From the IMG/VR virus record IMGVR_UViG_3300029821_000008: a stretch of 48,342 nucleotides of DNA. The stretch is one strand, 5' to 3'. The number at the start of each line of letters is the position of its first letter. The first letter of the stretch is position 1. The notes below the pieces were generated by a model. That model was not told where the DNA came from and searched no databases. It was given only the letters and a program-made list of their open reading frames with translations. The translations under genes and the position numbers were made by a program. The DNA is from a virus. Positions 5,836-21,720 of this stretch are shown piece by piece.

Positions 5836-6177
5836 ATGGAAAACGTAAACGACATTAACAGAGAGCATGATCCTAATTATGTAAATAAACTAAAGGAATC
5901 ATTGCACATAGGAGCTAAGAAAGAAATAGCTTTTGCTGAAGTTCCTGCGGAAGAATCAAAGTTTTATGATTGGCACGATGCTTCAAAAGCAAAGCCATGC
6001 CCCGCCATAGGCTATAAATCTCTAAGTCCAAAGGTTGAAGTTAAGACTCCTCTTGGTGAAGGGACAGGATACTTTAATTGTACGGATAATGATTGGCTTG
6101 TTGAATTGTATGGAGATATTACAGATGAATTGCAAGCGTACAAAGATGTAACGCATTGGAGATTTATTAAACTCTAA
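5836..6177 (+). CDS. Hypothetical protein
   Basis: 113-aa ORF whose stop lies in junction motif copy 2. It has a weak resemblance to DUF551-type phage proteins (W..D...KP ... THW). Confidence 0.5.
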   Translation: MENVNDINREHDPNYVNKLKESLHIGAKKEIAFAEVPAEESKFYDWHDASKAKPCPAIGYKSLSPKVEVKTPLGEGTGYFNCTDNDWLVELYGDITDELQAYKDVTHWRFIKL

Positions 6178-6192
6178 CAACCAATAACCATT
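6175..6192 (+). repeat. Gene-junction motif TAACAACCAATAACCATT (copy 2, ATG degraded to ATT)
   Basis: Identical to copy 1 except for the final base. The ATT is in frame with, and has no stop before, ATG 6220. Confidence 0.8.
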
Positions 6193-6219
6193 GAAGTAAT
6201 AAACCTAACAAAAGAAAAG

Positions 6220-6531
6220 ATGGGACTATTTATTTGCGCAAAATGTAATTGTGTTGAAAATACTGCTCTTGGTCATTATTGGTCAAGGAATAATGTAAGT
6301 CTTAAATTATCTGATAACATGAAACAATATGAAAAGGGCGCAGCTCTTTGTTCAGAATGTATGCCTGCTGATGCTTCATTTTCTGACGGTAGTGGCAAAG
6401 GGAGAATTGGAACAGGTAAATGGCATGGTAAATTTCCAAAGCAAAATTATGATGATTGGAAAAATACTGATGAGGGTAAATTGTATGTAAGACAGGGTGA
6501 TTATTTGATGTATAATCCCCGCAAAAGTTAA
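6220..6531 (+). CDS. Hypothetical zinc-ribbon protein
   Basis: Cys pairs CAKCNC ... CSEC. 103 aa. The stop lies in junction motif copy 3. Confidence 0.5.
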   Translation: MGLFICAKCNCVENTALGHYWSRNNVSLKLSDNMKQYEKGAALCSECMPADASFSDGSGKGRIGTGKWHGKFPKQNYDDWKNTDEGKLYVRQGDYLMYNPRKS

Positions 6532-6545
6532 AACCAATAACCATG
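6529..6545 (+). repeat. Gene-junction motif TAAAACCAATAACCATG (copy 3)
   Basis: It contains the stop of 6220..6531 and the start of 6543..7607. Confidence 0.8.
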
Positions 6546-7607
6546 AAAGAGACAAGAGAAGAAACATACAGGAAAGTCTTTATTAAGACTGAAGCTGATT
6601 TCCCGAAAGAGAATGGTCTCTATTTCTGTGTCGATCAGAACAGGCACTATATAGGGGAAAGATCATTTGACAAGGCTGATAAAATTAACCTACATATATG
6701 GTCAGGAGTTGACTGGTACTTACAGCCAGTTACCGACAAAGAGGCGACAGGTGAGCAAGAGAAACGACCAGAAATAGTTTGTATTTGCGGTTCAGGAAGA
6801 TTTTTAATGCAAATGCACGAAGTCGAAGAAAGATTAACACTTGAAGGTAAAATAGTCTTAATGATTGGGGTAAACACAAAAGATGTTGCAAGAACTGAAA
6901 ATCTTGAACACTATAAACCCATGTTAGATGAATTACATTTAAGAAAAATTGATATATCTGACAAAGTGTTTGTGGTCAATGTAGGTGGTTATATCGGAGA
7001 AAGCACTCGTAAAGAAATAGTCTATTCAGAAAGCCATAAAAAATCAATAGAATATCTTGAACGTGAAACACAGGGGAAAGTACCTCATTTTGATATTGAG
7101 GGTGGGGGTGGAGTGACTGCGAATGAGATAGAGCAAGAGAAACAGACGACAGAGAGTCTGCAATACATTAAAAAGATAGAAACTCTTATTGGATTAGGAG
7201 ATACAATAAACATAAAAGCAAGGCTCATTCATTTAAAAAGAATGATCGAGGATGATTTACAGGCAATGGAGAAGTATGCCAGCCAGAGTCAATCACTACC
7301 ATCTGTAACAAGGCAATATCCTGCTTTATGTTCTGCTTGTAATGGAACTGGTTCTAATTTCAGTCAAATAGATATGATGAACACTTCTTCTGTTTGCAGG
7401 GTTTGTAATGGGGAAGGTATTATCACGGTAACAGAGTATTTTAAGTCCCAACTAAAGCAGGGATACCCGAAAGAGTTTGTTGAGTGGATAGCTATGAAAA
7501 TAAATAATCAGCAAATGTCTGTTACGTTTCAGAAAAAATATTCATTTGCCGGGAATGATTATACTTTTGACGAACTATTCACCTACTGGAAAGAACAAAT
7601 AAAATAG
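6543..7607 (+). CDS. Multidomain protein: Rossmann-like 'CGS-RF...GYIGESTxxEI' domain plus C-terminal DnaJ-type zinc finger
   Basis: The central segment is IVCICGSGRFLMQ...LHLRKIDISDKVFVVNVGGYIGESTRKEI. From memory, it resembles an uncharacterised nucleoside-deoxyribosyltransferase-like domain found in actinophages. The C-terminal region carries CSACNGTG...CRVCNGEG, two CxxCxGxG units. Confidence 0.55.
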   Translation: MKETREETYRKVFIKTEADFPKENGLYFCVDQNRHYIGERSFDKADKINLHIWSGVDWYLQPVTDKEATGEQEKRPEIVCICGSGRFLMQMHEVEERLTLEGKIVLMIGVNTKDVARTENLEHYKPMLDELHLRKIDISDKVFVVNVGGYIGESTRKEIVYSESHKKSIEYLERETQGKVPHFDIEGGGGVTANEIEQEKQTTESLQYIKKIETLIGLGDTINIKARLIHLKRMIEDDLQAMEKYASQSQSLPSVTRQYPALCSACNGTGSNFSQIDMMNTSSVCRVCNGEGIITVTEYFKSQLKQGYPKEFVEWIAMKINNQQMSVTFQKKYSFAGNDYTFDELFTYWKEQIK

Positions 7608-7672
7608 GCATGAGAACCCTCCTGATGACAAAATATACGATTACAAGGTTTTTTCATGTGGGAGGGCGATGC
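7608..7672 (+). terminator. Long imperfect hairpin at the end of the early block (possible terminator or regulatory RNA)
   Basis: Pairings: GCAT(7608-11)/ATGC(7669-72), CCCTCC(7617-22)/GGAGGG(7661-66), and ATGAcAAAA/TTTTtTCAT around a 15-nt loop. It lies immediately after stop 7605-07 and upstream of the promoter at 7686. Confidence 0.35.
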
Positions 7673-7685
7673 CTTTAAAATAAAT

Positions 7686-7716
7686 TTTGATTTAAAGTTT
7701 TGATTATTTACTTTTG
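7686..7716 (+). promoter_or_regulatory. Bacteroidota sigma-A type promoter (TTTG-N19-TActTTTG) of the glycan operon
   Basis: TTTG at 7686-7689, a 19-nt spacer, and TACTTTTG at 7709-7716. ATG 7721 follows 4 nt later. Confidence 0.6.
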
Positions 7717-7720
7717 AATT

Positions 7721-8485
7721 ATGAGAATCGCAATAGTCTGTACATATTTCCAAAGACAATTTCAGTTAAATAAGACTCTTTTATCCATTGCCAAAAGTTC
7801 ACATAAAGACTTTGAGGTCATAATTGTTGACGATTGTTCGCCGGATGATATAATACTACCTGAGGTTGATTTTAAGGTCACTGTGATTAAGATGAAGGAT
7901 AAGACCTGGACGAATCCCGAGCCTGCTTATAATATCGGAATAATCGAAGCCCTGAAAGGTAATCCTGACATTATAATACTTCAAAATGCAGAGTGCTATC
8001 ATGAAGGTGATATTTTAACTAATGCTCAAAGGATAACTTCTGAGAATTATATTTCATTCGGGTGTTATTGCCTTAATGAAGAAACTACTTTCAAAGAACA
8101 TAATATTTCGGAAGTAATCCAGTCAAGTAACATTGGAGCTGTGGATAACGGTCAAAATGCATGGTATAACCATCCTGTTTTTCGTCCCGTTGGTTATGAT
8201 TTTTGCAGTGCGATAACTGCTGATAATCTCAGAAAGCTAAACGGTTATGATGAGCGATTTTCTTTGGGCTGTGCTTATGGTGATGACTATTTGATTGAAC
8301 GGGTCCGAATGTTAGGATTAAAGATTGAAATCACTGAATATCCTTTTGTAGTTCATCAGTGGCACTATTCGAATCCTGGTCATCCTGATCATGAATTACT
8401 TTGCAAACGCAATGCAGAACTATTAAAACAGTTGGTTCCTGAAAATAAGTATAAAGCTATTCACTTAATGACTCCTGATTTATGA
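7721..8485 (+). CDS. Family 2 glycosyltransferase
   Basis: Motifs: MRIAIVCTYF..., EVIIVDDCSPDD, and LNGYDERFSLGCAYGDDYL (the Glyco_transf_7C-like tail typical of GT2). Confidence 0.75.
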   Translation: MRIAIVCTYFQRQFQLNKTLLSIAKSSHKDFEVIIVDDCSPDDIILPEVDFKVTVIKMKDKTWTNPEPAYNIGIIEALKGNPDIIILQNAECYHEGDILTNAQRITSENYISFGCYCLNEETTFKEHNISEVIQSSNIGAVDNGQNAWYNHPVFRPVGYDFCSAITADNLRKLNGYDERFSLGCAYGDDYLIERVRMLGLKIEITEYPFVVHQWHYSNPGHPDHELLCKRNAELLKQLVPENKYKAIHLMTPDL

Positions 8486-9006
8486 AAGATACTCCCGGAT
8501 GGTTTGACTTTGCAGACTTCTATGATTTTATTGCAGCTCATTTTAATGAAGGTACGTTTGTTGAAATTGGAGTATGGAAGGGGCTTTCAATTAAGTATTT
8601 GGCCGAAAAGGTAAAGAATAAGAATATTAAAGTTTTCGGCCTTGATACGTTCAAAGGAACTCCCGGGGAACATGATGATGATATCGATATAATCAATAAC
8701 AACTTACTTAAAACGTTCCTTAAAAATGTTATAGGTACGGGAATTCAGGCTCTTGTAGGCCGAAGCGATGAAGGACATGTGTTTTTTGACGATGAAAGTA
8801 TTGATTTTCTTTTCATAGACGCCGATCATCATTACGAAGCTGTAAAAAAAGATATTGAATTGTGGTACCCAAAGATTAAAAAGGGCGGTATTATTTCAGG
8901 TCATGATTATTATATTCAGGATCAGAACGGGGTAGTGTTAGCAGTTAATGAGGCTTTCCCTGATGTTAAAATATATTCCGGCAGTGTATGGTACAAAGTA
9001 AAGTAA
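8482..9006 (+). CDS. Class I SAM-dependent methyltransferase (Methyltransf_24-like)
   Basis: ATGA overlap with the upstream gene. Motifs: GTFVEIGVWKGLS, IDFLFIDADHHYEAV, GGIISGHDY. Confidence 0.7.
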   Translation: MKDTPGWFDFADFYDFIAAHFNEGTFVEIGVWKGLSIKYLAEKVKNKNIKVFGLDTFKGTPGEHDDDIDIINNNLLKTFLKNVIGTGIQALVGRSDEGHVFFDDESIDFLFIDADHHYEAVKKDIELWYPKIKKGGIISGHDYYIQDQNGVVLAVNEAFPDVKIYSGSVWYKVK

Positions 9007-9752
9007 TTGATTGCTTCATGTTTTTCAATGAAGTTGAACTTCTTGATCTGAGATTAAGAACCTTAAAGGATTATGTTGATTATTTTGTACTGGCAGAGAT
9101 AAATATAACTCATTCCGGCAAGCTAAAGCCATATTATTTTGATGAGTATAAACATCTTTTTGCTGAGTACAATATCATTCACTTAAAAGATATCGCTTAC
9201 CCTCAGTCGAATCCGTGGATAGTGGAAAATGCTCACAGGAACATGCTTAATCATTTTGATTGTGATCCTGATGACTATGTGATAATTTCTGACCTGGATG
9301 AGATCCCGAATCCTGAAAAGATTCATCAGGGAATTGAGCTAGGTTATCACTCATTCGGCTTTCATCAGGAACTGTACTGCTATTATGTGAATTGTAAGTC
9401 ATCTCAGGTTTGGGCCGGATCTGTCTGTACGAAAAGAAAATACATAAAGTCACCTCAGGATGTAAGAAACAATCGTTGTAATCAGCCTTTCAACTTTATT
9501 AACGGCGGCTGGCACTACACTTCAATGGGTGGCAAGGATCGGATAAGGCTAAAGTTTGATTCATTTGCTGAAACTGATTTTAACGTGGATCAATACATGA
9601 ATGATCAAAACCTGGATCAATGTCTACAGACCGGAAAGGATCTAACCGGAAGAACTGAGAGTTGTTTTCAAAAACAGTTTATAACTGAAAGCGAAGTGAC
9701 TCATAAAGAAGTTTTGACATGGAAGAATGATTATCCTGAATTTTGGAAATGA
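8988..9752 (+). CDS. GT17-like glycosyltransferase (beta-1,4-GlcNAc-transferase III-like family)
   Basis: The N-terminus VIDCFMFFNEVELLDLRLRTLKDYVDYFVLAE, together with ISDLDEIPNPE and GGWHYTSMGG, matches my recollection of the GT17 signature. Confidence 0.6.
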   Translation: MVQSKVIDCFMFFNEVELLDLRLRTLKDYVDYFVLAEINITHSGKLKPYYFDEYKHLFAEYNIIHLKDIAYPQSNPWIVENAHRNMLNHFDCDPDDYVIISDLDEIPNPEKIHQGIELGYHSFGFHQELYCYYVNCKSSQVWAGSVCTKRKYIKSPQDVRNNRCNQPFNFINGGWHYTSMGGKDRIRLKFDSFAETDFNVDQYMNDQNLDQCLQTGKDLTGRTESCFQKQFITESEVTHKEVLTWKNDYPEFWK

Positions 9753-10846
9753 GAGTTTTATTAATTAATCCCTGGGAGGGTGAAGTTTTCCCGACTCCTG
9801 CAGTTGGTTATTTACAATCAACTTTAAAGAGTAATGGAATTGAAGTTACTGCAACTGATTTGCTTTACGGGTCAGATGATTACGATTTAGTTGCCGTTAC
9901 TTTTCATTCATTCTCGGTAAAACATGCTCAAAAGATCAGAGAACACTACAAAGGTCGTTTGATTTGCGGTGGTCATCATCCGTCTGCTTTGCCAGAACAA
10001 ATGTTATCAATTGGCTATGATCAGGTAATTGTCGGAGAGGGCGAAAAAGCGATCATGGAAGTTGTTAACGGGAATATTTCAAAAATCATCAAAGGTGAAA
10101 TCTCAGAAATAGATTCAATTCCTTTCCCGGATTACTCAGGTTTGAACTTTTGGGGTACAATGGGAATACCTGTAATTACTTCCCGTGGCTGTCCTTTTTT
10201 ATGCTCATTCTGCGGTTCCACTTCATTTTGGGGCCACAAATACCGTATGCGATCTGCAGCCAATGTTTTGCAAGAGCTTGAATTAAGGGCAAGGGAAGGA
10301 TATAAGACTTTCATGGCTGAAGATGATAATTTCACCGCAAACAAAAAACGAGCTTTAGAAATCTGTTCCGGAATAGCTGAAATGGGAGTTTTCGAGTGGC
10401 AATGTGCTTCCCGTGCTGAATCTCTAGATGAGGAACTTTGCAGGGCTTTAAAATTAGCCGGCTGTAAAACTGTTTGGCTTGGTGTTGAATCTTTAAGCCA
10501 GGAATCACTTGATCGGTGCAATAAAAACACCACAGTTGAAAAGATGCTAAAAGGAATCGAGACAGCCGAAAGATTTGGCATTGAAACTATGTCACAGTTC
10601 ATTGTAGGACTTCCGGGCGACTCAGTGAAGGATATTCAACTCACAGTACAAAACATCCGCAAAAGTTCTATAAAGCGCAAAGGGACAAATATACTTTGGA
10701 TACTTCCCGGAACGGAAGCTTATAGAATCGCAAAACAAAAAGGCTTTAGTGATGAAATATATTTGCAGGATAATTCTTTATTTTATACATTTGAACAAAA
10801 CATGGAGACTTTAAGATATTGGTGTTCGCTAATTGAAAGAGTATGA
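9749..10846 (+). CDS. B12-binding-domain (class B) radical SAM enzyme
   Basis: ATG 9749 forms an ATGA overlap with the upstream stop; the track start 9743 is a TTG. The N-terminal domain is Rossmann-like (MRVLLINPWEG...LICGGHHPS). It is followed by the radical SAM cluster motif TSRGCPFLCSFCGS (CxxxCxxC). Confidence 0.75.
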   Translation: MRVLLINPWEGEVFPTPAVGYLQSTLKSNGIEVTATDLLYGSDDYDLVAVTFHSFSVKHAQKIREHYKGRLICGGHHPSALPEQMLSIGYDQVIVGEGEKAIMEVVNGNISKIIKGEISEIDSIPFPDYSGLNFWGTMGIPVITSRGCPFLCSFCGSTSFWGHKYRMRSAANVLQELELRAREGYKTFMAEDDNFTANKKRALEICSGIAEMGVFEWQCASRAESLDEELCRALKLAGCKTVWLGVESLSQESLDRCNKNTTVEKMLKGIETAERFGIETMSQFIVGLPGDSVKDIQLTVQNIRKSSIKRKGTNILWILPGTEAYRIAKQKGFSDEIYLQDNSLFYTFEQNMETLRYWCSLIERV

Positions 10847-11193
10847 GACTACTGACCTACCTTAAAAATCAACCTTTAATTCTTTGGATTTGGATAAAAG
10901 AAACCAAAATAGTCGGATTCTTTAAATCACTCTGGATATTACTTTTCAATTCAATCAAACAGCCTGCAATACTTCACGGCTATTTTAATGAGTGGTTTGC
11001 CCGTCAGTACAGAGCAAAGAGAGAACTCTATTGGCACAGAACGTGGAACCAGATGGGCAAGGAGCAGTTTATACTTCCTTTTCTTCCGGGAAAATTAATT
11101 GTCTGCTCAAAACTTGAATTGGAGGTCTACAAAAAGAAAGGTTTGATCAGTAAGAACGCATCTATAAGAAAGCTAACAAAAAAGTCATTATGA
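10843..11193 (+). CDS. Hypothetical basic/hydrophobic protein inside the glycan operon
   Basis: 116 aa with ATGA overlaps at both ends. It has hydrophobic N-terminal segments (LILWIWI, LWILLF). No family was recognised. Confidence 0.5.
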   Translation: MRLLTYLKNQPLILWIWIKETKIVGFFKSLWILLFNSIKQPAILHGYFNEWFARQYRAKRELYWHRTWNQMGKEQFILPFLPGKLIVCSKLELEVYKKKGLISKNASIRKLTKKSL

Positions 11194-12071
11194 GGATAGC
11201 AATAGTTGGCTCAGAGGGAAACATAGGTTCACAACTTGTGCCGCATTTAAAAAGTCAGTGGCACGTTATTCATAGATGCGATCAAGTGCAGGGATTCGCA
11301 CCTGATTACTCGGTTGTTAATATTCTCAATTCAGGTGACCTATTAAAGGTTTTCCTGGACTTCGAGCCCCAGGTAACGATCCTGCTTGCTGCAATGGTCA
11401 GCCGGGTAACGTGTGAAGCCTCGCCGCATCTGACAATAGATACCAATCTGACAGGACTTAATAACGTAATTCAGTTATGCAAGGCGTTTGATTCAAAGTT
11501 GGTTTACTTTTCCACATCAGAGGTTTATGGCAATATCGGGGGTGTATTGAGTGAAGACCGGGAATGCAAACCGAATAATTTATATGGACTAACTAAGTAT
11601 TTAGGTGAAAAGTTGGTGCAGTACGAGTTAAAGAATTATTTAATCGTGAGGCCGTTCATGTTTTACCGGGAAGGAGAAAAAACAGGAGAGAATCACAGCG
11701 CAATGATTCGTTTCGCTTATCACCTGTCGAGAAAAGAAAAGATAACTGTTCACAAAGGCTCCCTGAGATCCTGGCTGCATATCTCAGACGGAGTAAGAAT
11801 CATTGAGGCTCTTTTGTATCAGAAAGAATCTCATATTGTGAATATCGGATCAGGAGAACTGATAAGGACTGAATTGCTTGCAGCCAAAATTTGCGCTTAT
11901 TTCAATCTTAAGTATGAAGACTATGTTGATGAATACGAACTGCCTGGCAAAATGACCCTTGAAAAGATACCGGATATTACAAGGCAGACAGAACTCACTA
12001 GATTAATGCCTGAGATTACTCTTGACGAGGGGATAAAAAGAGTTTGTGATAAAATAATTTTGCTTAACTGA
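11190..12071 (+). CDS. NAD-dependent sugar epimerase/dehydratase (extended SDR)
   Basis: Motifs: MRIAIVGSEGNIGSQL (GxxGxxG), FSTSEVYG and YGLTKYLGEK (YxxxK). Confidence 0.8.
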   Translation: MRIAIVGSEGNIGSQLVPHLKSQWHVIHRCDQVQGFAPDYSVVNILNSGDLLKVFLDFEPQVTILLAAMVSRVTCEASPHLTIDTNLTGLNNVIQLCKAFDSKLVYFSTSEVYGNIGGVLSEDRECKPNNLYGLTKYLGEKLVQYELKNYLIVRPFMFYREGEKTGENHSAMIRFAYHLSRKEKITVHKGSLRSWLHISDGVRIIEALLYQKESHIVNIGSGELIRTELLAAKICAYFNLKYEDYVDEYELPGKMTLEKIPDITRQTELTRLMPEITLDEGIKRVCDKIILLN

Positions 12072-12090
12072 TTTATTAGTTATAAATTTG
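12059..12090 (+). promoter_or_regulatory. Bacteroidota-type promoter (TTTG-N20-TAaaTTTG) ahead of the packaging/structural module
   Basis: TTTG at 12059-12062 and TAAATTTG at 12083-12090. The first downstream ATG is at 12105. Confidence 0.55.
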
Positions 12091-12104
12091 TCAAAAATAC
12101 CTGA

Positions 12105-12284
12105 ATGAGATATACAAATGAATTTGGGTTATTCGTGGATCAAGCGCAACCGATTAATAGAACCTTTGCAGTATTGATGATCAAAAATACAGAGCACAGG
12201 AAGGTATTGAACAGGCAGCCAGTAATAATATGGGTAGATAGCATTGCCTTATTGTGGTTTGACTGGGAGGTATTGAGTAACTAA
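12105..12284 (+). CDS. Hypothetical small protein (59 aa, below the ORF-track cutoff)
   Basis: ATG 12105 lies 15 nt after the -7 box, and the frame is open to TAA 12282-84. Product: MRYTNEFGLFVDQAQPINRTF... Confidence 0.3.
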   Translation: MRYTNEFGLFVDQAQPINRTFAVLMIKNTEHRKVLNRQPVIIWVDSIALLWFDWEVLSN

Positions 12285-12388
12285 TAATATAGTTATGAAA
12301 TCAGCAAAGATTAAGCCGTTCAAAAGCAAAAGCCTAAAAAGGTATCAGGAAGCTGAAAAGTATAAAAGGATAAACAGAGAAAAGAAAC

Positions 12389-12976
12389 ATGGCAAAAAAG
12401 AATAAAACTGTTTTAGATGAAGCGGAAGAGTTGTTGGATGACTCCGGTTTAACTGAACGGAATAAAATCTTTTGTCGTGAATATATATTTGATTGGAATG
12501 CAACTCGCTCATATACAATTGCGTACCCTGATGTTAATAGTCCCGAAGCAGCAAGAGCGGCAGCAAGTAGGTTGTTAACTAATGTTAATGTTAAGGCTTA
12601 CATTGAGCTTATTCAAAAGGACTTAGAGAAACTTGCAGGAATCAGCAGAATGAAAGTCATTTCAGAACATGCTAAAATGGCCTTTTCTTCTATTGCACAC
12701 TTACATAATACATGGATAACAAGAAAAGAATTCAATAAACTTACCGATGAGCAAAAAGCATGTATTAAATCAATTGAATCATCAGTAGAAACAAAAAATA
12801 TTGGCGGAAGAAATGCCGCAAATCAAAAATTTATTGATGTTGAAACTGTGAAAATTACACTTTACGATAAGCAAAAGAGCCTTGATGCTATAAATAAGAT
12901 GCTAGGTTATGATGCTCCGATTAAATTTCAGGGCGAATTAACCATTCCGCAATTACCTGATGTAATAATAAGATAA
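12389..12976 (+). CDS. terS: Terminase small subunit (Terminase_2 family)
   Basis: The segment LTERNKIFCREYIFDWNATRSYTIAYPDVNSPEAARAAASRLLTNVNVKAYI is typical of the family. It lies directly upstream of terL with an overlapping stop/start. Confidence 0.75.
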   Translation: MAKKNKTVLDEAEELLDDSGLTERNKIFCREYIFDWNATRSYTIAYPDVNSPEAARAAASRLLTNVNVKAYIELIQKDLEKLAGISRMKVISEHAKMAFSSIAHLHNTWITRKEFNKLTDEQKACIKSIESSVETKNIGGRNAANQKFIDVETVKITLYDKQKSLDAINKMLGYDAPIKFQGELTIPQLPDVIIR

Positions 12977-14418
12977 TGGCAGTAATTGAACAAGAAGTAA
13001 GTAGTCCGCAGAAAGTGATCCTTAGATCAAGGGCATGGATTAACTTGTTTCTTGCAGGTGTTGGATCAGGAAAAACACATTTAGCTGGGATTATCAGTTA
13101 TTGTAATATTAGGAAGTTTTCAAAGATCAGAGGCTTTATCGGTGCAAATACCTATGAGCAATTAAATAATTCCACAATGTTCCGCATCCGGGAATACTGG
13201 AAATCAATAGGACTAACTGAATGGTCAAAAGAAAATCCGAATGGTTTATATGTTGTTGGAAAGCAGCCGCCGCCTCACTTTAAAAGAGATGGTCATAATT
13301 TTGACCGTTATGACAGTATTGTTTCATTCATAAACGGGGGAATAGCTTTCATGGGAGCTTTAGAGAATGCAAAAACACATGAGGGCAAGGAGTTTGGATG
13401 GGCTATTTTGGATGAAACAAAAGACACCAGGGAATCAGATGTTAAAGAAATTATATTGGCCAGGTTAAGGCAAAAGGGAATGTTTAATGAACAGGGTGAA
13501 GAATGGAACCCGCTTTATATTCTTACCTCCCCGGCAAAGGTTGACTGGATCAATGAAATGTTTGAACTGGAAAAAAGTATAGATGAAATATCAGCAAAAA
13601 TATTCTCAGATAAGACTTTTTTTCAAAAAGAGTTCGGAGGTAAATTAGTTACTATATCTTCGACGTATCATAATCAAAAGAATCTTCCGGCTAATTATAT
13701 TCAGAACGTACTGGATAACAATACCGAGGAAAGAGGCAAAGCACTTATTTACGGGCATCCTTTTGTTTCAACCGGCGGAGAATTCTACTCATCCTTTGAC
13801 CGATTAAAGCACGTTAAGACTTTCAAATACGATCCTTCGCTACCTTTACATTTATCATTTGATCAAAACTCAGTGCCTTATAACTCATGCGGGATCAGCC
13901 AGGTTGTTAACGTCAACGGAATTTGGGAATGTAGGTTCATTGACGAAATCGCTTTAGAGAATCCACGGAATTCAACTGAGGAAGTCTGTGAGGAGTTTAT
14001 GATGCGATACCCAAACCATAAAGCAGGTCTATACTATTACGGTGATGCTTCAGGTCACAACCGTACAACAATGAACAAAGATTTCAAGCATCATTATGAG
14101 GTTATTGATTTTAAGCTCAGGAAATACATGAACAATGGATCCGACAGGACTCTGATAAGTAATCCTTCAGTTGTTAGGTGCAGAGATTTTATAAACCTTA
14201 TCTTTGAAGATAAATTGCCTGTAAGAATTTACTTTGATGAGAGTTGCAAAAAGATGATTGCTGACATGATGTACACTAAGCAGGCTCTTGACGGCACGAA
14301 GGATAAGCACATAGTAACTGACAAAGATACAGGCGATAAGTATCAGAAATACGGGCATTTTTCGGACTTACTTACTTATAAATGCGTTGAACTATTTAAA
14401 AACTTTTACAATGGGTAA
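12976..14418 (+). CDS. terL: Terminase large subunit
   Basis: Walker A (LAGVGSGKTH), Walker B (WAILDETKD), and a C-terminal nuclease-like acidic region. 480 aa. Confidence 0.85.
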   Translation: MAVIEQEVSSPQKVILRSRAWINLFLAGVGSGKTHLAGIISYCNIRKFSKIRGFIGANTYEQLNNSTMFRIREYWKSIGLTEWSKENPNGLYVVGKQPPPHFKRDGHNFDRYDSIVSFINGGIAFMGALENAKTHEGKEFGWAILDETKDTRESDVKEIILARLRQKGMFNEQGEEWNPLYILTSPAKVDWINEMFELEKSIDEISAKIFSDKTFFQKEFGGKLVTISSTYHNQKNLPANYIQNVLDNNTEERGKALIYGHPFVSTGGEFYSSFDRLKHVKTFKYDPSLPLHLSFDQNSVPYNSCGISQVVNVNGIWECRFIDEIALENPRNSTEEVCEEFMMRYPNHKAGLYYYGDASGHNRTTMNKDFKHHYEVIDFKLRKYMNNGSDRTLISNPSVVRCRDFINLIFEDKLPVRIYFDESCKKMIADMMYTKQALDGTKDKHIVTDKDTGDKYQKYGHFSDLLTYKCVELFKNFYNG

Positions 14419-14463
14419 CTAAAATATTAGTTAGTAACGAATTTACCGGTAAAACACAATAAA

Positions 14464-16215: not shown

Positions 16216-16901
16216 TGGGAAAATTTGCAAGCAGAGATTCAACAGGAACGCCCGTTGCATGGGGCGACATAACAGGGAAGCCCTCGACATTTGCCCCGAT
16301 AGTTCATGACAATACGGCTCATAGTCCTGCTTATGCTCCCATTGCTAATCCCACGTTCACAGGGACCGTAACAATAGCCTCAGAGTTAAGAATCACAAGT
16401 CCTGGTAATGGGATATTTGGAAGTCTTTTGGATGTATCTTCTCAGAAACTTGAAGCAGGATCAACGGCAGGATATAGGTCAGCAGTTGAAATTTACGGAG
16501 GTTCATCGAGTCCGGCAAATACAATTAAATTTCTGACGGCTTCAACAGAGAGGACAAAGGTAGATAATAATGGATTGTCAGTTTTTGGGAGGGCAACTAT
16601 CGAAAAGGCAGACGGTGCTTCAAGCATTATCCAGATTTTAACAAATGACGGCGGAGCAAATAATGAATATTTTGCCACATATAATATGGCAGATGATTTT
16701 TTGTTTGTATCTAATAAAAACGGAGGCGGTACTGTTAAGAATATTCATTTTGGCCTGGGTGGTAGTGATACCATTGCTACGAGTGCAAAGGTGACAATTC
16801 TTGCAAATGGAAACGTAGGCATTGGAACCACGTCCCCAGCAGAAAAACTTCACGTCTCGGGTAATGGACTATTTACAGGCGATGTAATTTGTTACGGATA
16901 A
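16215..16901 (+). CDS. Tail-fibre-like protein
   Basis: The N-terminal motif VAWGDITGKPSTFAPIVHDNTAH and the C-terminal motif GNVGIGTTSPAEKLHVSGNG are both common in phage fibre proteins. Confidence 0.55.
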   Translation: MGKFASRDSTGTPVAWGDITGKPSTFAPIVHDNTAHSPAYAPIANPTFTGTVTIASELRITSPGNGIFGSLLDVSSQKLEAGSTAGYRSAVEIYGGSSSPANTIKFLTASTERTKVDNNGLSVFGRATIEKADGASSIIQILTNDGGANNEYFATYNMADDFLFVSNKNGGGTVKNIHFGLGGSDTIATSAKVTILANGNVGIGTTSPAEKLHVSGNGLFTGDVICYG

Positions 16902-16942
16902 TATAGTACTGGCGTTTACAAATATTTGAGTATCTTTATAAT

Positions 16943-17317
16943 ATGAAAATATCAGCTATATATAAAATTCAAAGTAAATTAAAGCCTGAACGGTGCTATG
17001 TTGGCAGTGCCGTTAATATAAATTCAAGATGGGAAGCACACAAAAGGACTTTAAGATTAGATAAGCATCATTCACAGCAACTTCAGCGACATGTAGGTAA
17101 GTATGGAATTGAAGATTTAGTATTCATAATTATTGAGCCGTGTTTCCCGGAGTTTTTAATTATTCGTGAGCAATATTATATTGACACATTAAAGCCTTAC
17201 TTCAATTCCTGTAAAATCGCAGGGAGTACATTAGGTATCAGATATAAATTATCGGAAGAAACAAGAAAAAAAATAAGTCTTGCATTAAAAGAAAGAAAAT
17301 TTAAATTAGTATCTTAG
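16943..17317 (+). CDS. GIY-YIG homing endonuclease
   Basis: Motifs: AIYKIQS...CYVGSAVNINSRWEAHKR...REQYYID (GIY, YIG, Arg and Glu). The C-terminal region SEETRKKIS is NUMOD-like. Confidence 0.85.
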   Translation: MKISAIYKIQSKLKPERCYVGSAVNINSRWEAHKRTLRLDKHHSQQLQRHVGKYGIEDLVFIIIEPCFPEFLIIREQYYIDTLKPYFNSCKIAGSTLGIRYKLSEETRKKISLALKERKFKLVS

Positions 17318-19051: not shown

Positions 19052-19239
19052 AAGTAGTCGCTGTAAAACCAGAAGACTGGAAAAAACTAACTGAATATGT
19101 CGAGGATCTCAAACCGTCTTTTTATAAAGCAGAAAAGGCGGTTGAGATTCAGGCTATATTCCGTTCGGCAATAGTTGTTGAATTGCAGGAACAAAAAGCA
19201 GAGCCGGAAGTTAAACCGGAATCAAAAGATGAGATTTAG
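19048..19239 (+). CDS. Hypothetical acidic protein
   Basis: ATG 19048 forms an ATGA overlap with the lipoprotein stop and is in frame with the track ORF 19036..19239. Confidence 0.45.
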   Translation: MKVVAVKPEDWKKLTEYVEDLKPSFYKAEKAVEIQAIFRSAIVVELQEQKAEPEVKPESKDEI

Positions 19240-19828
19240 TATTATTTGCCCCAGCCGTCTTATCCCATACCCCGGATGTGCCTCGTATTTGGATCAGAAA
19301 ATAGTGAGAGCTATTGAATCGGTACTATCTCAGAGCTTTACAGACTTTGAATTGATAGTCATTGCGGATGGGTGTATAAAAACAAATGCTATTATAAGCA
19401 TGAATTTTGCTGACAGTAGGATAGTTTTGCTCGAATGCAAGCACAAAGCGATATTTGACAATTTACCTCGTAATACAGGCATTGAAGCGGCCAAAGGTGA
19501 ATATATCATTTACGTTGATGCTGATGACTATTGGGGGGAAGATCATTTAAAGAAGATCGAAAAGAATCTCTCTAATTATGATTGGGTCTGGTACAATGAT
19601 ATTATCTTCAATGGAGAGTGGATCGAAAGAGCTTGCAATATCAAAAGCCTTGGAGGTTGTGGAACGTCAAACGTGTGCCATAAAAGAAGTCTTAATTTGC
19701 GTTGGGGCCGTCCGGGTTACGCTCATGACTTTCACTTCTTGCAGCAGCTTTTAAGATTTCCGAATAACACTAAAATAGAAACACCGGAGTATTTTTGTTG
19801 TCACATCCCTGGAAATTATGATGTTTAG
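19229..19828 (+). CDS. Family 2 glycosyltransferase
   Basis: ATG 19229 gives MRFSIICPSRL...; the track start 19175 is a TTG. Motifs: FELIVIADGC and YIIYVDADDYW (DxD). Confidence 0.7.
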   Translation: MRFSIICPSRLIPYPGCASYLDQKIVRAIESVLSQSFTDFELIVIADGCIKTNAIISMNFADSRIVLLECKHKAIFDNLPRNTGIEAAKGEYIIYVDADDYWGEDHLKKIEKNLSNYDWVWYNDIIFNGEWIERACNIKSLGGCGTSNVCHKRSLNLRWGRPGYAHDFHFLQQLLRFPNNTKIETPEYFCCHIPGNYDV

Positions 19829-20228: not shown

Positions 20229-20843
20229 ATGAAAATAGCAGCAGTAACAATCACTTACAATCGATTAGAGTTGACCAAAAGAACAATCGATAGTTTTTAC
20301 AGTAAGACAAATGTAGATTATCATCTCTTTGTCGATAACGGAAGCTCAGACGGCACTCAGGACTATTTAAAGAGTAGGTTTGATCATATCTTCTTGGATC
20401 AGAACTACGGTATAACAGAAGCCTTTAAAACAGCTGTGGAGCGATTAACAGACTTTGATTTTATCCTTAAACTCGATAATGATATTGAAACGGTCACAGA
20501 CGACATCTTAAATAAGATGCTGAACTTTTACGAATTGAACGGATTAAAGTATGTTTGTTCACCGGTCGATTTGAATTTGGACCCTAATTATGCGCCACGT
20601 TTAACTGGAAAAGGAATGTTACACGGTTTTAATGTGAGCTACGTTTCTCATACCGGCGGGGCTTTTCAGTTAATCCCTATTGATATTTGTCTGAAGTTAA
20701 TGGAAGATTACCGCAACTTTAAACTCGGTGATCAGGCTATTGGAGGTTTTTATAAATCTCAGGGATATAAACCTGTTTATCTTTTAGATTTGGAAATGAA
20801 ACATATTGGATTGAATCAGTCAACTGGAAATTACATACTATGA
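20229..20843 (+). CDS. Family 2 glycosyltransferase
   Basis: Motifs: MKIAAVTITYNR, LFVDNGSSDGT and ILKLDNDIE (DxD). Confidence 0.75.
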   Translation: MKIAAVTITYNRLELTKRTIDSFYSKTNVDYHLFVDNGSSDGTQDYLKSRFDHIFLDQNYGITEAFKTAVERLTDFDFILKLDNDIETVTDDILNKMLNFYELNGLKYVCSPVDLNLDPNYAPRLTGKGMLHGFNVSYVSHTGGAFQLIPIDICLKLMEDYRNFKLGDQAIGGFYKSQGYKPVYLLDLEMKHIGLNQSTGNYIL

Positions 20844-21073
20844 CATACAATATTAATACAGTCGAAAAGACTATTGAAATTATCGGGGAATATTCTGTAA
20901 AAGAACTGTTATCCCTGCTTAATAGTTTAACTGAATCAAAGATCATTGATGAGGAATACAAAGTTAAGGCGGAATTAATTTCCTATCCGTATTATCCCAT
21001 TATTTATCCCGTGCAACCGCAATATCCATATTATCCTACTTATCGCATAGAATGGAATCCATATAAACTATGA
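20840..21073 (+). CDS. Hypothetical protein with a Tyr/Pro-rich C-terminal tail
   Basis: ATGA overlaps at both ends. The tail reads SYPYYPIIYPVQPQYPYYPTYRIEWNPYKL. Confidence 0.5.
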   Translation: MTYNINTVEKTIEIIGEYSVKELLSLLNSLTESKIIDEEYKVKAELISYPYYPIIYPVQPQYPYYPTYRIEWNPYKL

Positions 21074-21720
21074 CCTACGACCTCATAATAATATCCCAGA
21101 GCAAAGGCGACTTAATCAGGGTTACCCAGCAGTGCATTGATTCAGCTCGGAAAGATAATGCAGAATTGAATATCATTGTCGTGGAAACCGGTGATCCTTA
21201 TCCTTACCATGTAGATAAGATCGTAAAATACGAAGGAGAATTTAATTACAATAAGGCTTTAAATCTTGGTTTGCAGTATGCCAAATCAGACTATCAGGTA
21301 CTTTGCAATAACGACATTATCTTTCATTCCGGATGGTCAAAGATGGGTGACATAATGAAAGTGAATGAGTATTTATCCGCTTCCGCACTATCAAATGATC
21401 AGAGGCAAAGTATCTGTAAAAAAGGAAATGTAGCGTATGAAGGTTATGTGATAGGGATTCACTTGACAGGGTGGTGTATATTCACTGCAAAAGAACTCTG
21501 GCCGCTGATTGGTAAGTTAAGCGAAAAACACCGTTTCTGGTTCTCTGATAATGTGTATGCGGATCAGTTGATTCAGGCAAAGATTAAACACGCTCTGATT
21601 TGCTCTATTCAAGTTGATCATTTGGGAAGTCGGACCTTGCAGAAACAGCCACGGAATGTTCAGCAGTTATATACATATTCACAGGGCCGGGCTGTCAGGG
21701 AATTTAAAAGTATAAGATAA
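21070..21720 (+). CDS. Glycosyltransferase, GT2-like
   Basis: Motifs: YDLIIISQSKGD..., LNIIVVETGD, YNKALNLG and VLCNNDIIF. This matches the general layout of the GT-A fold. Confidence 0.55.
   Translation: MTYDLIIISQSKGDLIRVTQQCIDSARKDNAELNIIVVETGDPYPYHVDKIVKYEGEFNYNKALNLGLQYAKSDYQVLCNNDIIFHSGWSKMGDIMKVNEYLSASALSNDQRQSICKKGNVAYEGYVIGIHLTGWCIFTAKELWPLIGKLSEKHRFWFSDNVYADQLIQAKIKHALICSIQVDHLGSRTLQKQPRNVQQLYTYSQGRAVREFKSIR

Follow-up and report, generated by a model that had tools for sequence, protein, structure and literature searches.

This locus raises the question of what a phage would build with six overlapping plus-strand genes (7721-12071), encoding a GT2 glycosyltransferase (GT2a), a Methyltransf_24 methyltransferase (MT24), a GT17-like transferase, a B12-domain radical SAM enzyme (rSAM), a 116-aa protein and an extended SDR, and on which acceptor the product would be placed. 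The window (i.e. the whole stretch of DNA analysed, 48,342 nt) carries an exact 127-bp repeat common to both ends, a sign that the 48,215-bp assembly is circular. Together with two examined ~48.2-kb contigs (100% identical to the window, with differing start points), this bears out the 48-kb phage recognised in an earlier reading made from the letters alone (hereafter the sequence-only reading); an identical GT2a is present on 22 contigs, 11 of which are 20-50 kb long. The source is a complete temperate phage of anaerobic Bacteroidota (integrase at 36467-37414), whose genome holds at least nine sugar-transfer or sugar-tailoring genes in two clusters (7721-12071 and 19229-21720). We propose that these encode a wholly cytoplasmic system for glycan assembly and tailoring that most likely glycosylates the virion, a reading which, taken as a whole, we hold with middling confidence.

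All six open reading frames lie where the sequence-only reading had placed them (Table 1), and its family assignments hold (Pfam matches for five products: GT2a, MT24, GT17, rSAM and SDR), as do the gene overlaps: those at 8482, 9749, 10843 and 11190 each read exactly ATGA, and one of 19 nt joins MT24 (end at 9006) to GT17 (start at 8988). One gene caller starts GT17 at an internal Met (244 aa), and the rSAM frame opens with a TTG at 9743, its ATGA junction coming from the ATG at 9749. The consensus promoter proposed for the cluster was recovered as a Bacteroidota-type motif ending 5 nt ahead of the GT2a start codon: the window has 10 occurrences of the pattern as against 1.9 expected (none of 100 shuffles reached 10), and an 82% relative (L020) keeps both boxes and their spacing, with diverged sequence further upstream; a sigma-70 scan gave no enrichment (20 found vs 24 expected). 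Upstream of the promoter lies a hairpin with a T-rich run (0 of 200 shuffles fold equally well), probably a terminator or boundary element that ends the early operon. A mosaic junction is found at this hairpin: relative L031 is unrelated to the window upstream of 7603 and matches it from there on (98.6% identity).

Table 1. Coordinates of the features discussed in the text, with the evidence on which each assignment rests.
Feature	Position	Strand	Evidence
Hairpin and T-rich run	7606..7674	+	RNA fold -23.9 kcal/mol, z = -3.7
Bacteroidota-type promoter	7686..7716	+	TTTG-N19-TACTTTTG, fits -33/-7 consensus
GT2a, GT-A glycosyltransferase	7721..8485	+	PF00535 3e-7, 30.9 bits vs cut-off 23.3
MT24, SAM-dependent methyltransferase	8482..9006	+	PF13578 3e-20, TylF 8e-6
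GT17-like glycosyltransferase, DLD motif	8988..9752	+	PF04724 2e-20
rSAM, 365 aa, B12-binding-like N-terminal domain	9749..10846	+	PF04055 3e-23
116-aa conserved protein	10843..11193	+	no family match
Extended SDR, NDP-sugar dehydratase/epimerase/4-ketoreductase type	11190..12071	+	PF01370 2e-30
Second Bacteroidota-type promoter motif	12059..12090	+	pattern match, sequence read; overlaps SDR stop
Terminase small subunit	12389-12976	+	PF03592 9e-25
Terminase large subunit (TerL)	12976-14418	+	tblastn to annotated terminases
Portal	14464-16215	+	phrog_7376 2e-12
GT2b, core trio	19229..19828	+	PF00535 1.6e-12
GT2c, second core glycosyltransferase	20229..20843	+	PF00535 6.7e-11
GT2d, third core gene, weak GT2 match	21070..21720	+	PF00535 4.7e-3, sub-threshold
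Putative head-morphogenesis protein	21953-22906	+	gene order, co-conservation with portal
Putative scaffold-like protein	23500-24378	+	gene order, co-conservation with portal
Putative major capsid protein	24395-25408	+	gene order, co-conservation with portal
Putative head-associated protein, 356 aa	25482-26552	+	gene order, co-conservation with portal

The six genes are thus real, but as a system they are incomplete, the sequence-only reading having missed three GT2-type genes (GT2b, GT2c and GT2d) that terminase and portal genes (12389-16215) separate from the first cluster. As relative L004 has the first cluster nested inside the second (portal-GT2b-GT2a-GT2a'-GT17-rSAM-SDR-GT2c-GT2d-head genes), and as the split layout is repeated in L024, L026 and L029, we regard both clusters as one system. 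Within the portal lineage, 18 of the 19 contigs with at least 1 kb downstream of the portal carry the GT2 cluster after it (the exception being L086), and two portal relatives at 33-35% (L095 and L096) lack the cluster. GT2c is 58-90% identical in relatives of this lineage (dN/dS 0.07-0.11), with GT2d kept beside it at 47-81% and joined via small overlapping ORFs to the head gene at 21953; the GT2b frame opens with a TTG at 19175 and has its ATG at 19229. Across the whole lineage the trio and the head genes are inherited together, with matching divergence, and a scan for the Bacteroidota pattern found no promoter motif of its own in this cluster. The motif overlapping the SDR stop probably drives, judging by its sequence, the packaging/head (late) operon; the trio belongs to the head-morphogenesis operon and is passed on with portal and capsid genes. 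The identities of the head proteins (21953-26552) are putative, since none has a database family match.

The composition of the first cluster is not fixed in the way that a six-gene unit would imply. Across 37 non-redundant relatives (loci fetched by rSAM, which is therefore constant by construction), the recurrent core, as read from gene neighbourhoods, is GT2a-rSAM, often with an SDR adjacent, and three genes (MT24, GT17 and that of the 116-aa protein) are accessory, clade-specific add-ons. GT2a, the core glycosyltransferase and partner of rSAM, lies upstream of it in 25 of the 37 (the two are fused in one protein, P0257), and the SDR adjoins rSAM in 21. Only near-identical relatives (L019, L030-33) have MT24, probably a sugar O-methyltransferase, at this place, and in L078, L079 and L089 a gene between TerL and portal encodes a 38% homologue; GT17 was found in L001, L004 and L019 only (dN/dS 0.05 vs L001). 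The 116-aa protein (hydrophobic in its N-terminal part, basic in its C-terminal part) has no match in Pfam, NCBIfam or PHROG and only 16 clusters of homologues, every one unannotated. Within the clade of the window its gene stands invariably between rSAM and SDR, and its amino-acid identity is 93% in L019 and 83% in L020, with many synonymous changes in the DNA (dN/dS 0.06). Furthermore, recombination breakpoints occur at 7603 and within the cassette, and island contents vary among portal-lineage relatives. The best reading is that of a modular, late-expressed glycan system in which the core is conserved and the tailoring island hypervariable.

Since bacterial polysaccharide loci typically contain genes of these families, the cassette could be a piece of a host capsule or LPS locus, carried along passively and without a role for the phage, a possibility that the sequence-only reading had raised together with inactivated motifs. 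This is contradicted by several observations. In ~185,000 species genomes, rSAM and GT2a gave six hits, all on MAG contigs (47.6 and 72.7 kb, the others being fragments of 2.4-7.2 kb), so that both families are essentially phage-restricted and, as cellular genomes virtually lack them, were not taken over from host capsule loci. The cassette is conserved in a fixed relation to virion genes on more than 37 distinct phage contigs, and every cassette gene is under purifying selection (dN/dS 0.05-0.14 vs 0.06-0.09 for TerL and portal). The active-site motifs are intact: the three Cys of the rSAM motif TSRGCPFLCSFCGS (C148/C152/C155) are invariant across 31 relatives, as are D37 D38, Q88-N89-x-E91..H94 and D177 E178 of GT2a (NxE replacing the canonical DxD motif), and in one relative the rSAM cluster motif has become the homing site of an intein. 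We consequently give passive carriage a negligible probability, and consider that the glycan-building system is very probably restricted to phages. As the sequence-only reading had supposed, neither 50,697 phage records nor the literature searched contained a described phage system with such a gene combination; the same records hold no match to GT2a and no close relative of rSAM (best 25% identity).

The hallmark of the cassette is rSAM, a discrete family (more than 120 relatives at ≥55% identity, ~10 clusters at 50% identity). Its designation as a cobalamin-type enzyme stands as regards the domain, by a marginal match (PF02310 3e-8, 33.8 bits vs cut-off 32.1, model positions 51-120 alone being covered), but cobalamin use does not follow from it, since the best fold match of its AF2 model (pLDDT 91) is AprD4 (TMq 0.83, as compared with 0.74 for MgmA and 0.70-0.74 for TsrM). 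The B12-like domain of AprD4 reportedly binds no cobalamin, so that methylation is a candidate reaction of rSAM and no more; nor is any reaction transferable by homology, as all NCBIfam equivalog scores are far below their cut-offs (e.g. AprD4 76.7 vs 500). Several of the nearest families (ApyD, MgmA and TsrM) act on peptides or proteins and not on sugars, the best NCBIfam match is the RiPP enzyme ApyD (6.7e-34), and MgmA (a protein glutamine methylase) and TsrM (a tryptophan methylase) lead Foldseek by E-value. On these grounds, and given that the cassette sits among head genes and that the SDR is dispensable, being missing from types C' and D (about one third of the rSAM cassettes), rSAM might modify a phage or host protein, e.g. 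by C-methylating or cross-linking a capsid residue in the manner of MgmA, TsrM and RiPP enzymes, the nearby glycosyltransferases then modifying that protein separately or at a later step. We consider this improbable, because sub-cut-off scores point to a likeness generic to the superfamily, and because rSAM is always found amid glycosyltransferases and methyltransferases, never without adjacent glycosyltransferases (and once fused to GT2a). Moreover, the gene neighbourhood of its distant homologues (25-28% identity) is that of an NDP-sugar pathway (DegT aminotransferase, SDR, RmlA-like nucleotidyltransferase and GT8). A sugar is thus the probable substrate. The SDR has the motifs GxxGxxG (GSEGNIG) and YxxxK (YGLTK), further matches to RmlD_sub_bind (6e-23) and phrog_540 (2e-47), and PDB relatives among dTDP-glucose 4,6-dehydratase-related proteins and RmlD. 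Of the 19 distant loci, 13 have an SDR-family ORF within 7 kb (directly downstream in ~9), and the absence of an SDR from about one third of cassettes makes an obligate rSAM-reductase pair unlikely as a general rule.

The sequence-only reading had left host glycans, the virion or DNA as acceptors; of these, DNA is disfavoured and the virion appears preferable to host glycans. For DNA hypermodification, in which glycosyltransferases would act on modified bases against restriction and rSAM, SDR and methyltransferase would tailor the attached sugar, one may invoke the terminase genes adjoining the cassette, the match of MT24 to phrog_2675 (1.5e-22, labelled 'DNA methyltransferase') and the well-known phage glycosyltransferases of hydroxymethyl-pyrimidine DNA (cited in PMC12619734). 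Yet the ORFs scanned for families include no thymidylate-synthase-like or other hydroxymethylase, kinase or other base-modifying gene, the GT2 and GT17 types fall outside known DNA glucosyltransferase families, five or six glycosyltransferases imply a long glycan, and the core trio lies between portal and scaffold genes, all of which renders this reading very unlikely.

The main rival to virion glycosylation is modification of the host envelope, whereby the soluble enzymes would act on the host's undecaprenyl-linked intermediates of LPS, capsule or the general Bacteroidota protein O-glycan at the inner membrane face, and a host flippase and ligase would export the altered glycan. If true, it would mean superinfection exclusion in lysogens or, in late infection, a shield from competing phages and progeny not trapped on debris. 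As the phage is temperate and its first cluster has its own promoter, such a host-directed role, with expression in lysogens, is possible, and a lipoprotein-like ORF (18794-19051) in the region of the post-portal cluster hints at envelope-directed functions. The predicted GT2a structure (AF2, pLDDT 95.6) has a generic GT-A fold, to which polysaccharide polymerases/synthases and the wall-teichoic-acid enzymes TarS/TarP are as similar as polypeptide GalNAc-transferases; TarP is itself a prophage-encoded teichoic-acid glycosyltransferase. The same role has been proposed for a glycosyltransferase between portal and capsid genes in the Bacteroides-infecting 'Gratiaviridae' (Benler et al. 2021, PMC8008677). 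On the other hand, a hydropathy scan found no polytopic membrane protein anywhere in the genome, hence no Wzx/Wzy/Gtr-like protein (flippase or polymerase) and no initiating transferase, and the ORF scans yielded no nucleotidyltransferase, in agreement with the sequence-only reading; all enzymes of the system are soluble. Bacteroidota surface glycans differ from strain to strain, whereas the core trio is co-inherited with head genes. Beyond the near absence of rSAM and GT2a from cellular genomes, the cassette adjoins genes for packaging, head or tail in each of three distinct virion-module layouts: in unrelated phages it separates capsid from tail genes (L028) or, in 13 loci, is flanked by tailspike/tape-measure-like genes on one side and those of a ClpP prohead protease and portal on the other, and one bearer is a 122-kb phage encoding RecA and an RNR-like protein (faint Pfam match). 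We therefore regard envelope modification as rather unlikely.

Position and co-inheritance with head genes suggest, tentatively, a virion protein as acceptor, the head proteins (21953-26552) being candidates; as a point against it, those of the glycosyltransferase-bearing lineage show no Ser/Thr-rich tail or extension when compared with the glycosyltransferase-less L095. In the virion reading, the soluble glycosyltransferases would draw on host nucleotide sugars to assemble an oligosaccharide of ~5-6 residues during late infection, on an acceptor that the phage determines (most likely a head protein). The enzymes of the recombining island just upstream of the terminase (GT2a, MT24, GT17, rSAM, the 116-aa protein and SDR, under its own Bacteroidota promoter) would tailor it: SDR and rSAM may remodel one sugar, SDR oxidising or reducing at C4 and rSAM performing radical C-H chemistry, either C-methylation (if cobalamin is bound) or an AprD4-like dehydration whose keto product SDR would reduce to a deoxy sugar. 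GT2a would handle the remodelled sugar, and O-methylation by MT24 would cap the glycan.

Taken together, these observations point to a phage that probably produces an unusual glycan of its own, with the virus particle itself as the most likely site. Virion glycosylation has a precedent in mycobacteriophages (Freeman et al. 2023, as summarised in PMC10877033, PMC12619734 and PMC12363180), to whose glycosyltransferases those of the window phage have no detected homology. The AprD4/AprD3 pair offers a precedent for sugar deoxygenation by a radical SAM enzyme and a reductase. Swapping of island content between phages would generate glycan diversity, akin to that of bacterial O-antigen loci.

The cassette consists of six plus-strand ORFs at 7721-12071 (the GT2-type glycosyltransferase GT2a, the Methyltransf_24 protein MT24, GT17, the radical SAM enzyme rSAM, a 116-aa gene and SDR, in that order), which stand where the sequence-only reading had placed them, with ATGA read at 8482, 9749, 10843 and 11190, and with the 19-nt overlap that it had noted being common to MT24 and GT17. 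All five protein families that it had predicted were matched in Pfam: PF00535 by GT2a (3e-7, 30.9 bits vs cut-off 23.3), PF13578 (Methyltransf_24) by MT24 (3e-20, 73.4 bits vs 26.3), PF04724 by GT17 (2e-20, 73.4 bits vs 26, covering model positions 73-299 of 348), PF04055 by rSAM (3e-23, 83.3 bits vs 29.5) and PF01370 (extended-SDR Epimerase) by SDR (2e-30, 106.4 bits vs 20.9). MT24 additionally matched PF05711 (TylF; 8e-6, 25.7 bits vs 23), a PHROG labelled DNA methyltransferase and, weakly and as the only match in a PDB sequence search, 6g7d (which we take to be a mycobacterial sugar 1-O-methyltransferase); it appears to be a Methyltransf_24/TylF-like O-methyltransferase family member, for which sugar and DNA are both candidate substrates. 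The same PDB search gave no match for GT17. The SDR translation carries an NAD(P) motif (GxxGxxG as GSEGNIG) and a catalytic YxxxK (as YGLTK), and resembles dTDP-glucose 4,6-dehydratase-related proteins and RmlD-type 4-ketoreductases; against the NCBIfam equivalogs it stayed far below every cut-off (best rmlD, 78 vs 224) and corresponded to no specific enzyme (RmlD, RmlB, GalE or heptose epimerase). The 116-aa ORF had no match in Pfam, NCBIfam or PHROGs, and its homologues (16 clusters, within the clade of the window only) always lie between rSAM and SDR; with 93% and 83% amino-acid identity in relatives, many synonymous changes and a dN/dS of 0.06, we take it to be a real gene. The consensus promoter claimed at 7686-7716 is of the Bacteroidota -33/-7 type (TTTG-N19-TACTTTTG), a motif that occurs 10 times in the window (vs 1.9 expected; 0 of 100 shuffles reached 10), and it is kept in an 82% relative (L020) despite diverged sequence further upstream. 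A sigma-70 promoter and terminator scan of 6000-13500 gave no enrichment, and sigma-70 was discarded as the cassette promoter type in favour of the Bacteroidota motif. Ahead of the promoter lies a stable hairpin (7606-7674; dG -23.9, z = -3.7).

Features of the phage genome discussed in the text, in order of position
Feature	Coordinates	Strand	Remarks
354-aa protein directly upstream of the cassette	6543-7607	+	DnaJ-type CxxCxGxG zinc finger, 3.8e-5 (below threshold); phrog_8027 match
rSAM, 365 aa	9749-10846	+	
Block between portal and GT2 trio: 228-aa tail-fibre-repeat-like protein, GIY-YIG homing endonuclease, 487-aa protein	16215-18783	+	
GIY-YIG homing endonuclease	16943-17317	+	PF01541, 2.9e-8
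85-aa ORF, lipoprotein-like signal peptide and lipobox (MKRLFGILMLMFFALVMSC...)	18794-19051	+	inside structural region, just before GT2b cluster
GT2b	19229-19828	+	PF00535, 1.6e-12; 48.1 bits vs 23.3
GT2c	20229-20843	+	PF00535, 6.7e-11; 42.8 bits vs 23.3
GT2d	21070-21720	+	PF00535 weak, 4.7e-3; 17.3 bits, below cut-off 23.3
HNH / endonuclease VII-type nuclease genes, early and recombination region	38041-38850, 40415-40915, 44089-44604	+	
Second, unrelated radical SAM domain protein, 274 aa	41780-42604	+	phrog_9298, 2.7e-22; PF04055, 5.9e-7

Three further GT2-type genes (GT2b-d) lie between the portal gene and the head-morphogenesis, scaffold and capsid genes, chained to the head genes by overlapping small ORFs and with no promoter motif of their own. 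The related locus L004 shows the order TerS-TerL-portal-GT2b-[GT2a-GT2a'-GT17-rSAM-SDR]-GT2c-GT2d-head-scaffold-capsid and, since it nests the first cluster inside the second, we consider the two clusters to be one system that is split in the window (a split layout that is repeated in L024, L026 and L029). The initial description of a six-gene unit therefore stands as regards the six genes and falls short as regards extent, the three GT2-type genes at 19229-21720 belonging to the system as well. The AF2 model of GT2a (pLDDT 95.6) has a GT-A Rossmann-like fold, with 599 PDB matches in Foldseek at E<=1e-3, the best 50 of which are all GT-A glycosyltransferases (TMq <=0.69; polysaccharide, teichoic-acid and polypeptide transferases alike); the acceptor class sought from these matches came out as generic GT-A only, and a PDB sequence search gave one match (E = 0.06). 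GT2a has no canonical DxD, the expected position being taken by an invariant Q88-N89-A-E91...H94 (read from the sequence, not superposed); the motif is present in GT17 (DLD), GT2b (DAD) and GT2c (DND).

The comparative set comprised 48 viral loci fetched via rSAM, together with MAG and metagenome loci, dereplicated to 37 close (>=53% rSAM identity) and 19 distant (25-35%) ones whose neighbouring ORFs were clustered; rSAM is constant in this set by construction. Among the close loci, GT2a lies just upstream of rSAM in at least 25 of 37 and SDR just downstream in at least 21 of 37 (lower bounds, as many contigs are incomplete), and an SDR-family ORF is found within 7 kb of rSAM in 13 of the 19 distant loci. 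The SDR is missing from the C' and D cassette types, and is replaced in some cassettes by a 450-530-aa GT2_4/GT92-like protein and in others by two unknown proteins plus an FkbM methyltransferase and a GT11 fucosyltransferase-like protein; with about one third of the cassettes having no SDR, the idea of an obligate rSAM+SDR pair was downgraded. MT24 and GT17 occur in few relatives only and, the 116-aa gene being equally limited to its clade, the six-gene set did not emerge from the synteny search as a fixed unit. The cassette invariably borders virion genes, and three arrangements of these modules were seen: it lies upstream of the terminase or after the portal (the lineage of the window and L004), between capsid/head-completion and tail genes with another portal family (L028 and five similar loci), or between tailspike/tape-measure-like genes and a ClpP prohead protease plus phrog_11226 portal (13 loci).

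A second set was fetched by portal; of the 19 contigs in it that are 55-85% identical in this protein and reach >=1 kb past its gene, 18 carried a GT2 cluster right after the portal, with the full GT2b-c-d trio in 11 of them and GT2b+GT2d in L072, L073 and L076. L086 has no GT2 match in 3.1 kb downstream of the portal, and in L095 and L096, which are more distant at 33-35% portal identity, the portal is directly followed by the head gene. The island upstream of the terminase varies from phage to phage: it holds rSAM cassettes in the clade of the window, L073 and L090, a GT2a-like gene only in L074, L075, L077 and L094, FkbM and GT11 genes (and no rSAM) in L083, and nothing recognisable in L080, L081 and L092. 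Since an MT24-like gene (38-39% identity) is found between TerL and portal in three contigs (L078:8085, L079:1232 and L089:3228), the tailoring genes are found at several alternative positions near the packaging genes. Furthermore, L031 and L032 share the cassette and late genes with the window at 98.6% identity and have unrelated genes upstream of 7603, a recombination breakpoint (in L031) that coincides with the stable hairpin directly ahead of the cassette promoter. From GT2a to GT17, L019 matches the window at 100%, after which its identity drops to 97% (rSAM), 93% (116-aa gene) and 79% (SDR), which points to recombination inside the cassette; in this 97% relative, rSAM and the 116-aa gene are moreover separated by a 52-aa ORF (L019:3524-3682) that is absent from the window. 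Taken together, the comparisons give a picture of a conserved core accompanied by a hypervariable, recombining tailoring island.

The rSAM alignment, searched against ~185,000 species genomes, gave six matches, all on MAG contigs (47.6 and 72.7 kb, or fragments of 2.4-7.2 kb) and none on an isolate chromosome. The 50,697 deposited phage records held no close rSAM homologue (best 25% identity, Streptomyces phage SF3) and no GT2a homologue, and at the DNA level the cassette had only a weak 112-bp match to a 735-kb uncultured phage. The close rSAM family amounts to ~10 clusters among 1.84 billion representatives, beyond which the scores fall from 449 to ~270 to ~200 bits, into the general B12-rSAM superfamily. 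The GT2a motifs and the rSAM Fe-S motif are invariant (the CxxxCxxC, C148/C152/C155, in 31 sequences), and every gene of the cassette has a dN/dS of 0.05-0.14, on a par with TerL and portal. In one rSAM homologue (P0258, from a single 3.8-kb Logan contig) CxxxCxxC is interrupted by a classical HNH intein (SRGCPFK/C...VLVHN/CSFCAS), a location that would fit the general tendency of inteins toward highly constrained sites. The possibility, raised at the outset, that the block is a common host capsule-locus fragment carried passively is contradicted by these phage-restricted families with MAG-only rSAM matches, by the invariant motifs, by the low dN/dS and by the intein within CxxxCxxC, and we reject it as an explanation of the cassette.

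The ends of the window (1-127 and 48216-48342) share an exact 127-bp direct repeat, which indicates a circular assembly (k-mer overlap) with a true genome length of 48,215 bp; the window is a complete phage genome. Of the 22 contigs on which an identical GT2a was found, 11 are 20-50 kb long, and two ~48.2-kb contigs that were compared are 100% identical to the window with differing start points. The gene content (DnaD-like loader, primase-polymerase, TerS, TerL, portal, tyrosine integrase, endolysin, RecE-like exonuclease and NinB) suggests that the phage is temperate, in view of the integrase among others. TerL is at most 29% identical to that of any deposited phage, the nearest being Bacteroides, Flavobacterium and Salinibacter phages, and related contigs sit in MAG bins of Prolixibacteraceae and Bacteroidales; on the basis of the promoter type, these bins and the distant TerL relatives, we consider an anaerobic Bacteroidota species the most likely host. 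A host chromosome context for the cassette was sought and none was found (the 122-kb contig L027 is a large phage itself), and tRNA and Rfam scans of the window gave no match. Among the remaining genes, the load of homing-type endonucleases (several HNH/endonuclease VII-type, plus a GIY-YIG in the late region) is unusually high for a 48-kb genome. The second radical SAM protein, for which no solved relative was found by sequence, sits among recombination and HNH-endonuclease genes. The block between portal and GT2 trio, whose 487-aa protein had no family match, is missing from L026 (portal, 108-aa ORF, GT2b) and is present in L031 and L032 in a longer GIY-YIG/NUMOD3 version; the 85-aa lipoprotein-like ORF could be a superinfection-exclusion or envelope-directed moron.

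The model of rSAM (365 aa, pLDDT 91) combines a Rossmann-like domain with a radical SAM barrel and has no C-terminal domain; the N-terminal domain is five-stranded and superposes on those of TsrM, MgmA and AprD4. The match to the B12-binding family is marginal and partial (PF02310, 33.8 bits vs 32.1, model positions 51-120 only), and by our own reading the sequence holds an SxS...GG resembling the SxL...GG of B12 domains and no DxHxxG. AprD4, whose B12-like domain reportedly binds no cobalamin, is the solved structure nearest to rSAM in sequence (2e-18) as well as in geometry (TMq 0.83, rmsd 3.8 A); MgmA and TsrM (TMq 0.70-0.74), OxsB and MiaB come next among the structural matches. Foldseek with the model did not discriminate an AprD4-like enzyme from a cobalamin methylase, and the BFVD matches were uncharacterised phage COG1032 proteins only. 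Since all NCBIfam equivalogs (ApyD, HpnJ, PhpK, BchE, AprD4 and others) scored far below cut-off, no reaction can be transferred to rSAM by homology. The term 'cobalamin-type' used by the sequence-only reading holds as a description of a domain, given the B12-binding match, and no further, AprD4 fitting as well or better; the enzyme can be classed neither with the class B methylases nor among AprD4 orthologues. Its context argues for sugar chemistry, because rSAM has never been seen without adjoining GTs, because an SDR is frequently adjacent, and because its distant homologues sit in a putative nucleotide-sugar pathway. These homologues (25-28% identity; L057-L070, viral contigs of 18-128 kb) share a conserved neighbour block, DegT aminotransferase - rSAM - SDR - RmlA-like nucleotidyltransferase (1e-51) - GT8 - (GT1-like), which by its predicted gene functions is another phage nucleotide-sugar pathway. 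A 640-aa protein on one ENA contig of 2.3 kb (P0257), in which GT2a (47% identity) is fused to rSAM (58% identity), could be a genuine Rosetta-stone fusion or else result from a 1-nt error at an ATGA junction, and we accord it little weight.

As for the acceptor of the glycan, the statement that the phage carries no Wzx/Wzy or initiating transferase gene was borne out by a hydropathy scan of all plus-strand ORFs of >=50 aa: no polytopic protein was detected, a 109-aa ORF next to the endolysin reaching the highest count with 2 TM segments, and every product of the cassette is soluble. Because the genome encodes no polytopic membrane protein, it would lack a flippase, a polymerase, an initiating transferase and anything Gtr-like. 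Pfam and PHROG scans of the non-structural ORFs (a few short ORFs and the tail genes excepted) revealed no dCMP/dUMP hydroxymethylase of the thymidylate-synthase family and no other base-modifying gene, on which ground we reject DNA glycosylation. From the acceptors suggested earlier (host glycan, virion or DNA), DNA is thus disfavoured, and virion proteins and host lipid-linked glycans are retained. We tentatively propose that virion proteins, probably those of the head, may well be the acceptor, since the core GTs belong to the head operon and, throughout the lineage, diverge in step with portal and capsid, and since the cassette lies within virion modules of three structural layouts (including that of a 122-kb phage with RecA and an RNR-like protein, the latter a faint Pfam match). 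On the other hand, the GT-A fold of GT2a is generic, and a comparison of the major capsid protein, the 356-aa protein, the head-morphogenesis protein and the scaffold with those of the GT-less L095 revealed no convincing acceptor tails or insertions. That the system would instead modify the host envelope (host lipid-linked glycans) seems less likely to us: a temperate lifestyle and a first cluster with its own promoter would suit this reading, and a GT between the portal and capsid genes of Bacteroides 'Gratiaviridae' has been proposed as a host-capsule modifier (Benler et al. 2021, PMC8008677), whereas the head-operon position of the core GTs and their co-divergence with portal and capsid speak against it.

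Phage-encoded glycan machinery is of a known kind, and what distinguishes the present one is its phage-specific minimal B12-domain rSAM, its core GTs embedded in the head operon and its hypervariable tailoring island. Since no cultured phage carries the system, we infer both acceptor and chemistry. As a speculation that we regard as rather doubtful, many uncultured phages of anaerobes (Bacteroidota included) might coat their own capsids with an oligosaccharide, its conserved inner part being made by the head-operon GTs and its outer part diversified by a recombining 'serotype island' in which rSAM, as the hallmark, would produce a C-methylated, deoxygenated or rearranged non-host sugar. If true, this would represent a viral analogue of O-antigen variation as well as a radical SAM sugar chemistry that is new. 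To our knowledge, mycobacteriophages are the only phages whose own enzymes have been shown to glycosylate the virion; a widespread head-operon system in anaerobe phages would make such glycosylation general, with a bearing on host-range engineering and on how immune systems, mucus and bacterial defences recognise phages. Moreover, the rSAM family is attractive for enzymology (discrete, compact at 365 aa, confidently modelled, strongly constrained, with a minimal B12 domain and a link to sugars), and the combination of conserved core and hypervariable island leads to testable predictions on glycan diversification in viruses.

In comparison with known systems, rSAM shares with the class B methylases (TsrM, MgmA, TokK, CysS and GenK type) the Rossmann-like B12-binding match and the CxxxCxxC core (Foldseek E-values 1e-19 to 1e-13), and differs in being the smallest, without their C-terminal domains. 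HpnJ was its second-best NCBIfam match (1.3e-33) and, at 116.6 bits vs a cut-off of 577.6, rSAM is not an HpnJ orthologue. In hopanoid glycosylation HpnI (a GT2) attaches a sugar that HpnJ (a B12-domain rSAM) then rearranges; the pairing of GT2 and rSAM is common to both systems, whereas the acceptor there is a lipid of bacterial membranes. AprD4 is a radical SAM 1,2-diol dehydratase acting on a sugar, which together with the NADPH-dependent reductase AprD3 accomplishes the C3' deoxygenation of apramycin (PMC5461906). The phage enzyme has the same two-domain architecture, and the partnership with AprD3 would parallel the recurrent rSAM-SDR adjacency; however, the identity to AprD4 is only ~20% (NF033070, 76.7 bits vs cut-off 500), the substrate there is an aminoglycoside pseudodisaccharide of an antibiotic pathway, and about one in three phage cassettes has no SDR.

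The GtrABC and TarP prophage systems are likewise temperate-phage GT2-type transferases that change a surface glycan, and TarP is among the structural neighbours of GT2a. They differ in comprising 1-3 genes near attP or the integrase (vs nine in and around the head operon here), and Gtr-type and O-antigen modules rely on GtrA/GtrB/GtrC-type membrane proteins or Wzx/Wzy/O-acetyltransferase, for which the hydropathy scan gave no candidate in the window; we know of no report of rSAM or SDR tailoring in GtrABC/TarP systems. As the defining components of Gtr-type seroconversion and of DNA-glucosylation systems were both sought and found absent, the present system would be neither. The claim that no described phage system combines such enzymes agrees with our literature search, which found no phage glycan cassette with a B12-type rSAM.

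In the mycobacteriophages Che8, Corndog and Myrna, cytoplasmic phage GTs decorate the phage's own capsid and tail-tube proteins, with gene sets that vary between phages and in temperate and lytic ones alike, according to the summaries of Freeman et al. 2023 (Cell Host Microbe) in PMC10877033, PMC12619734 and PMC12363180. Phage-encoded GTs in variable gene sets are the likeness, virion glycosylation being suggested here by gene position; the differences lie in the hosts (Actinobacteria there, anaerobic Bacteroidota here) and in the embedding of the core GTs of the window in the head operon, and a tblastn search of 50,697 phage records gave no mycobacteriophage match for GT2a, GT2b or GT2c. We are not aware of a radical SAM enzyme or SDR having been described in the mycobacteriophage system, nor of a B12-domain rSAM as a component of giant-virus glycosylation machinery. 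Chloroviruses and Mimivirus employ their own NDP-sugar enzymes (4,6-dehydratases, aminotransferases and methyltransferases) and GTs to build unusual virion glycans without host machinery, a logic like that proposed for the system of the window, although these are giant viruses of eukaryotes and there is no homology at the level of the cassette. By analogy, the phage system would work in the manner of mycobacteriophage and giant-virus virion glycosylation, as a counterpart homologous to neither.
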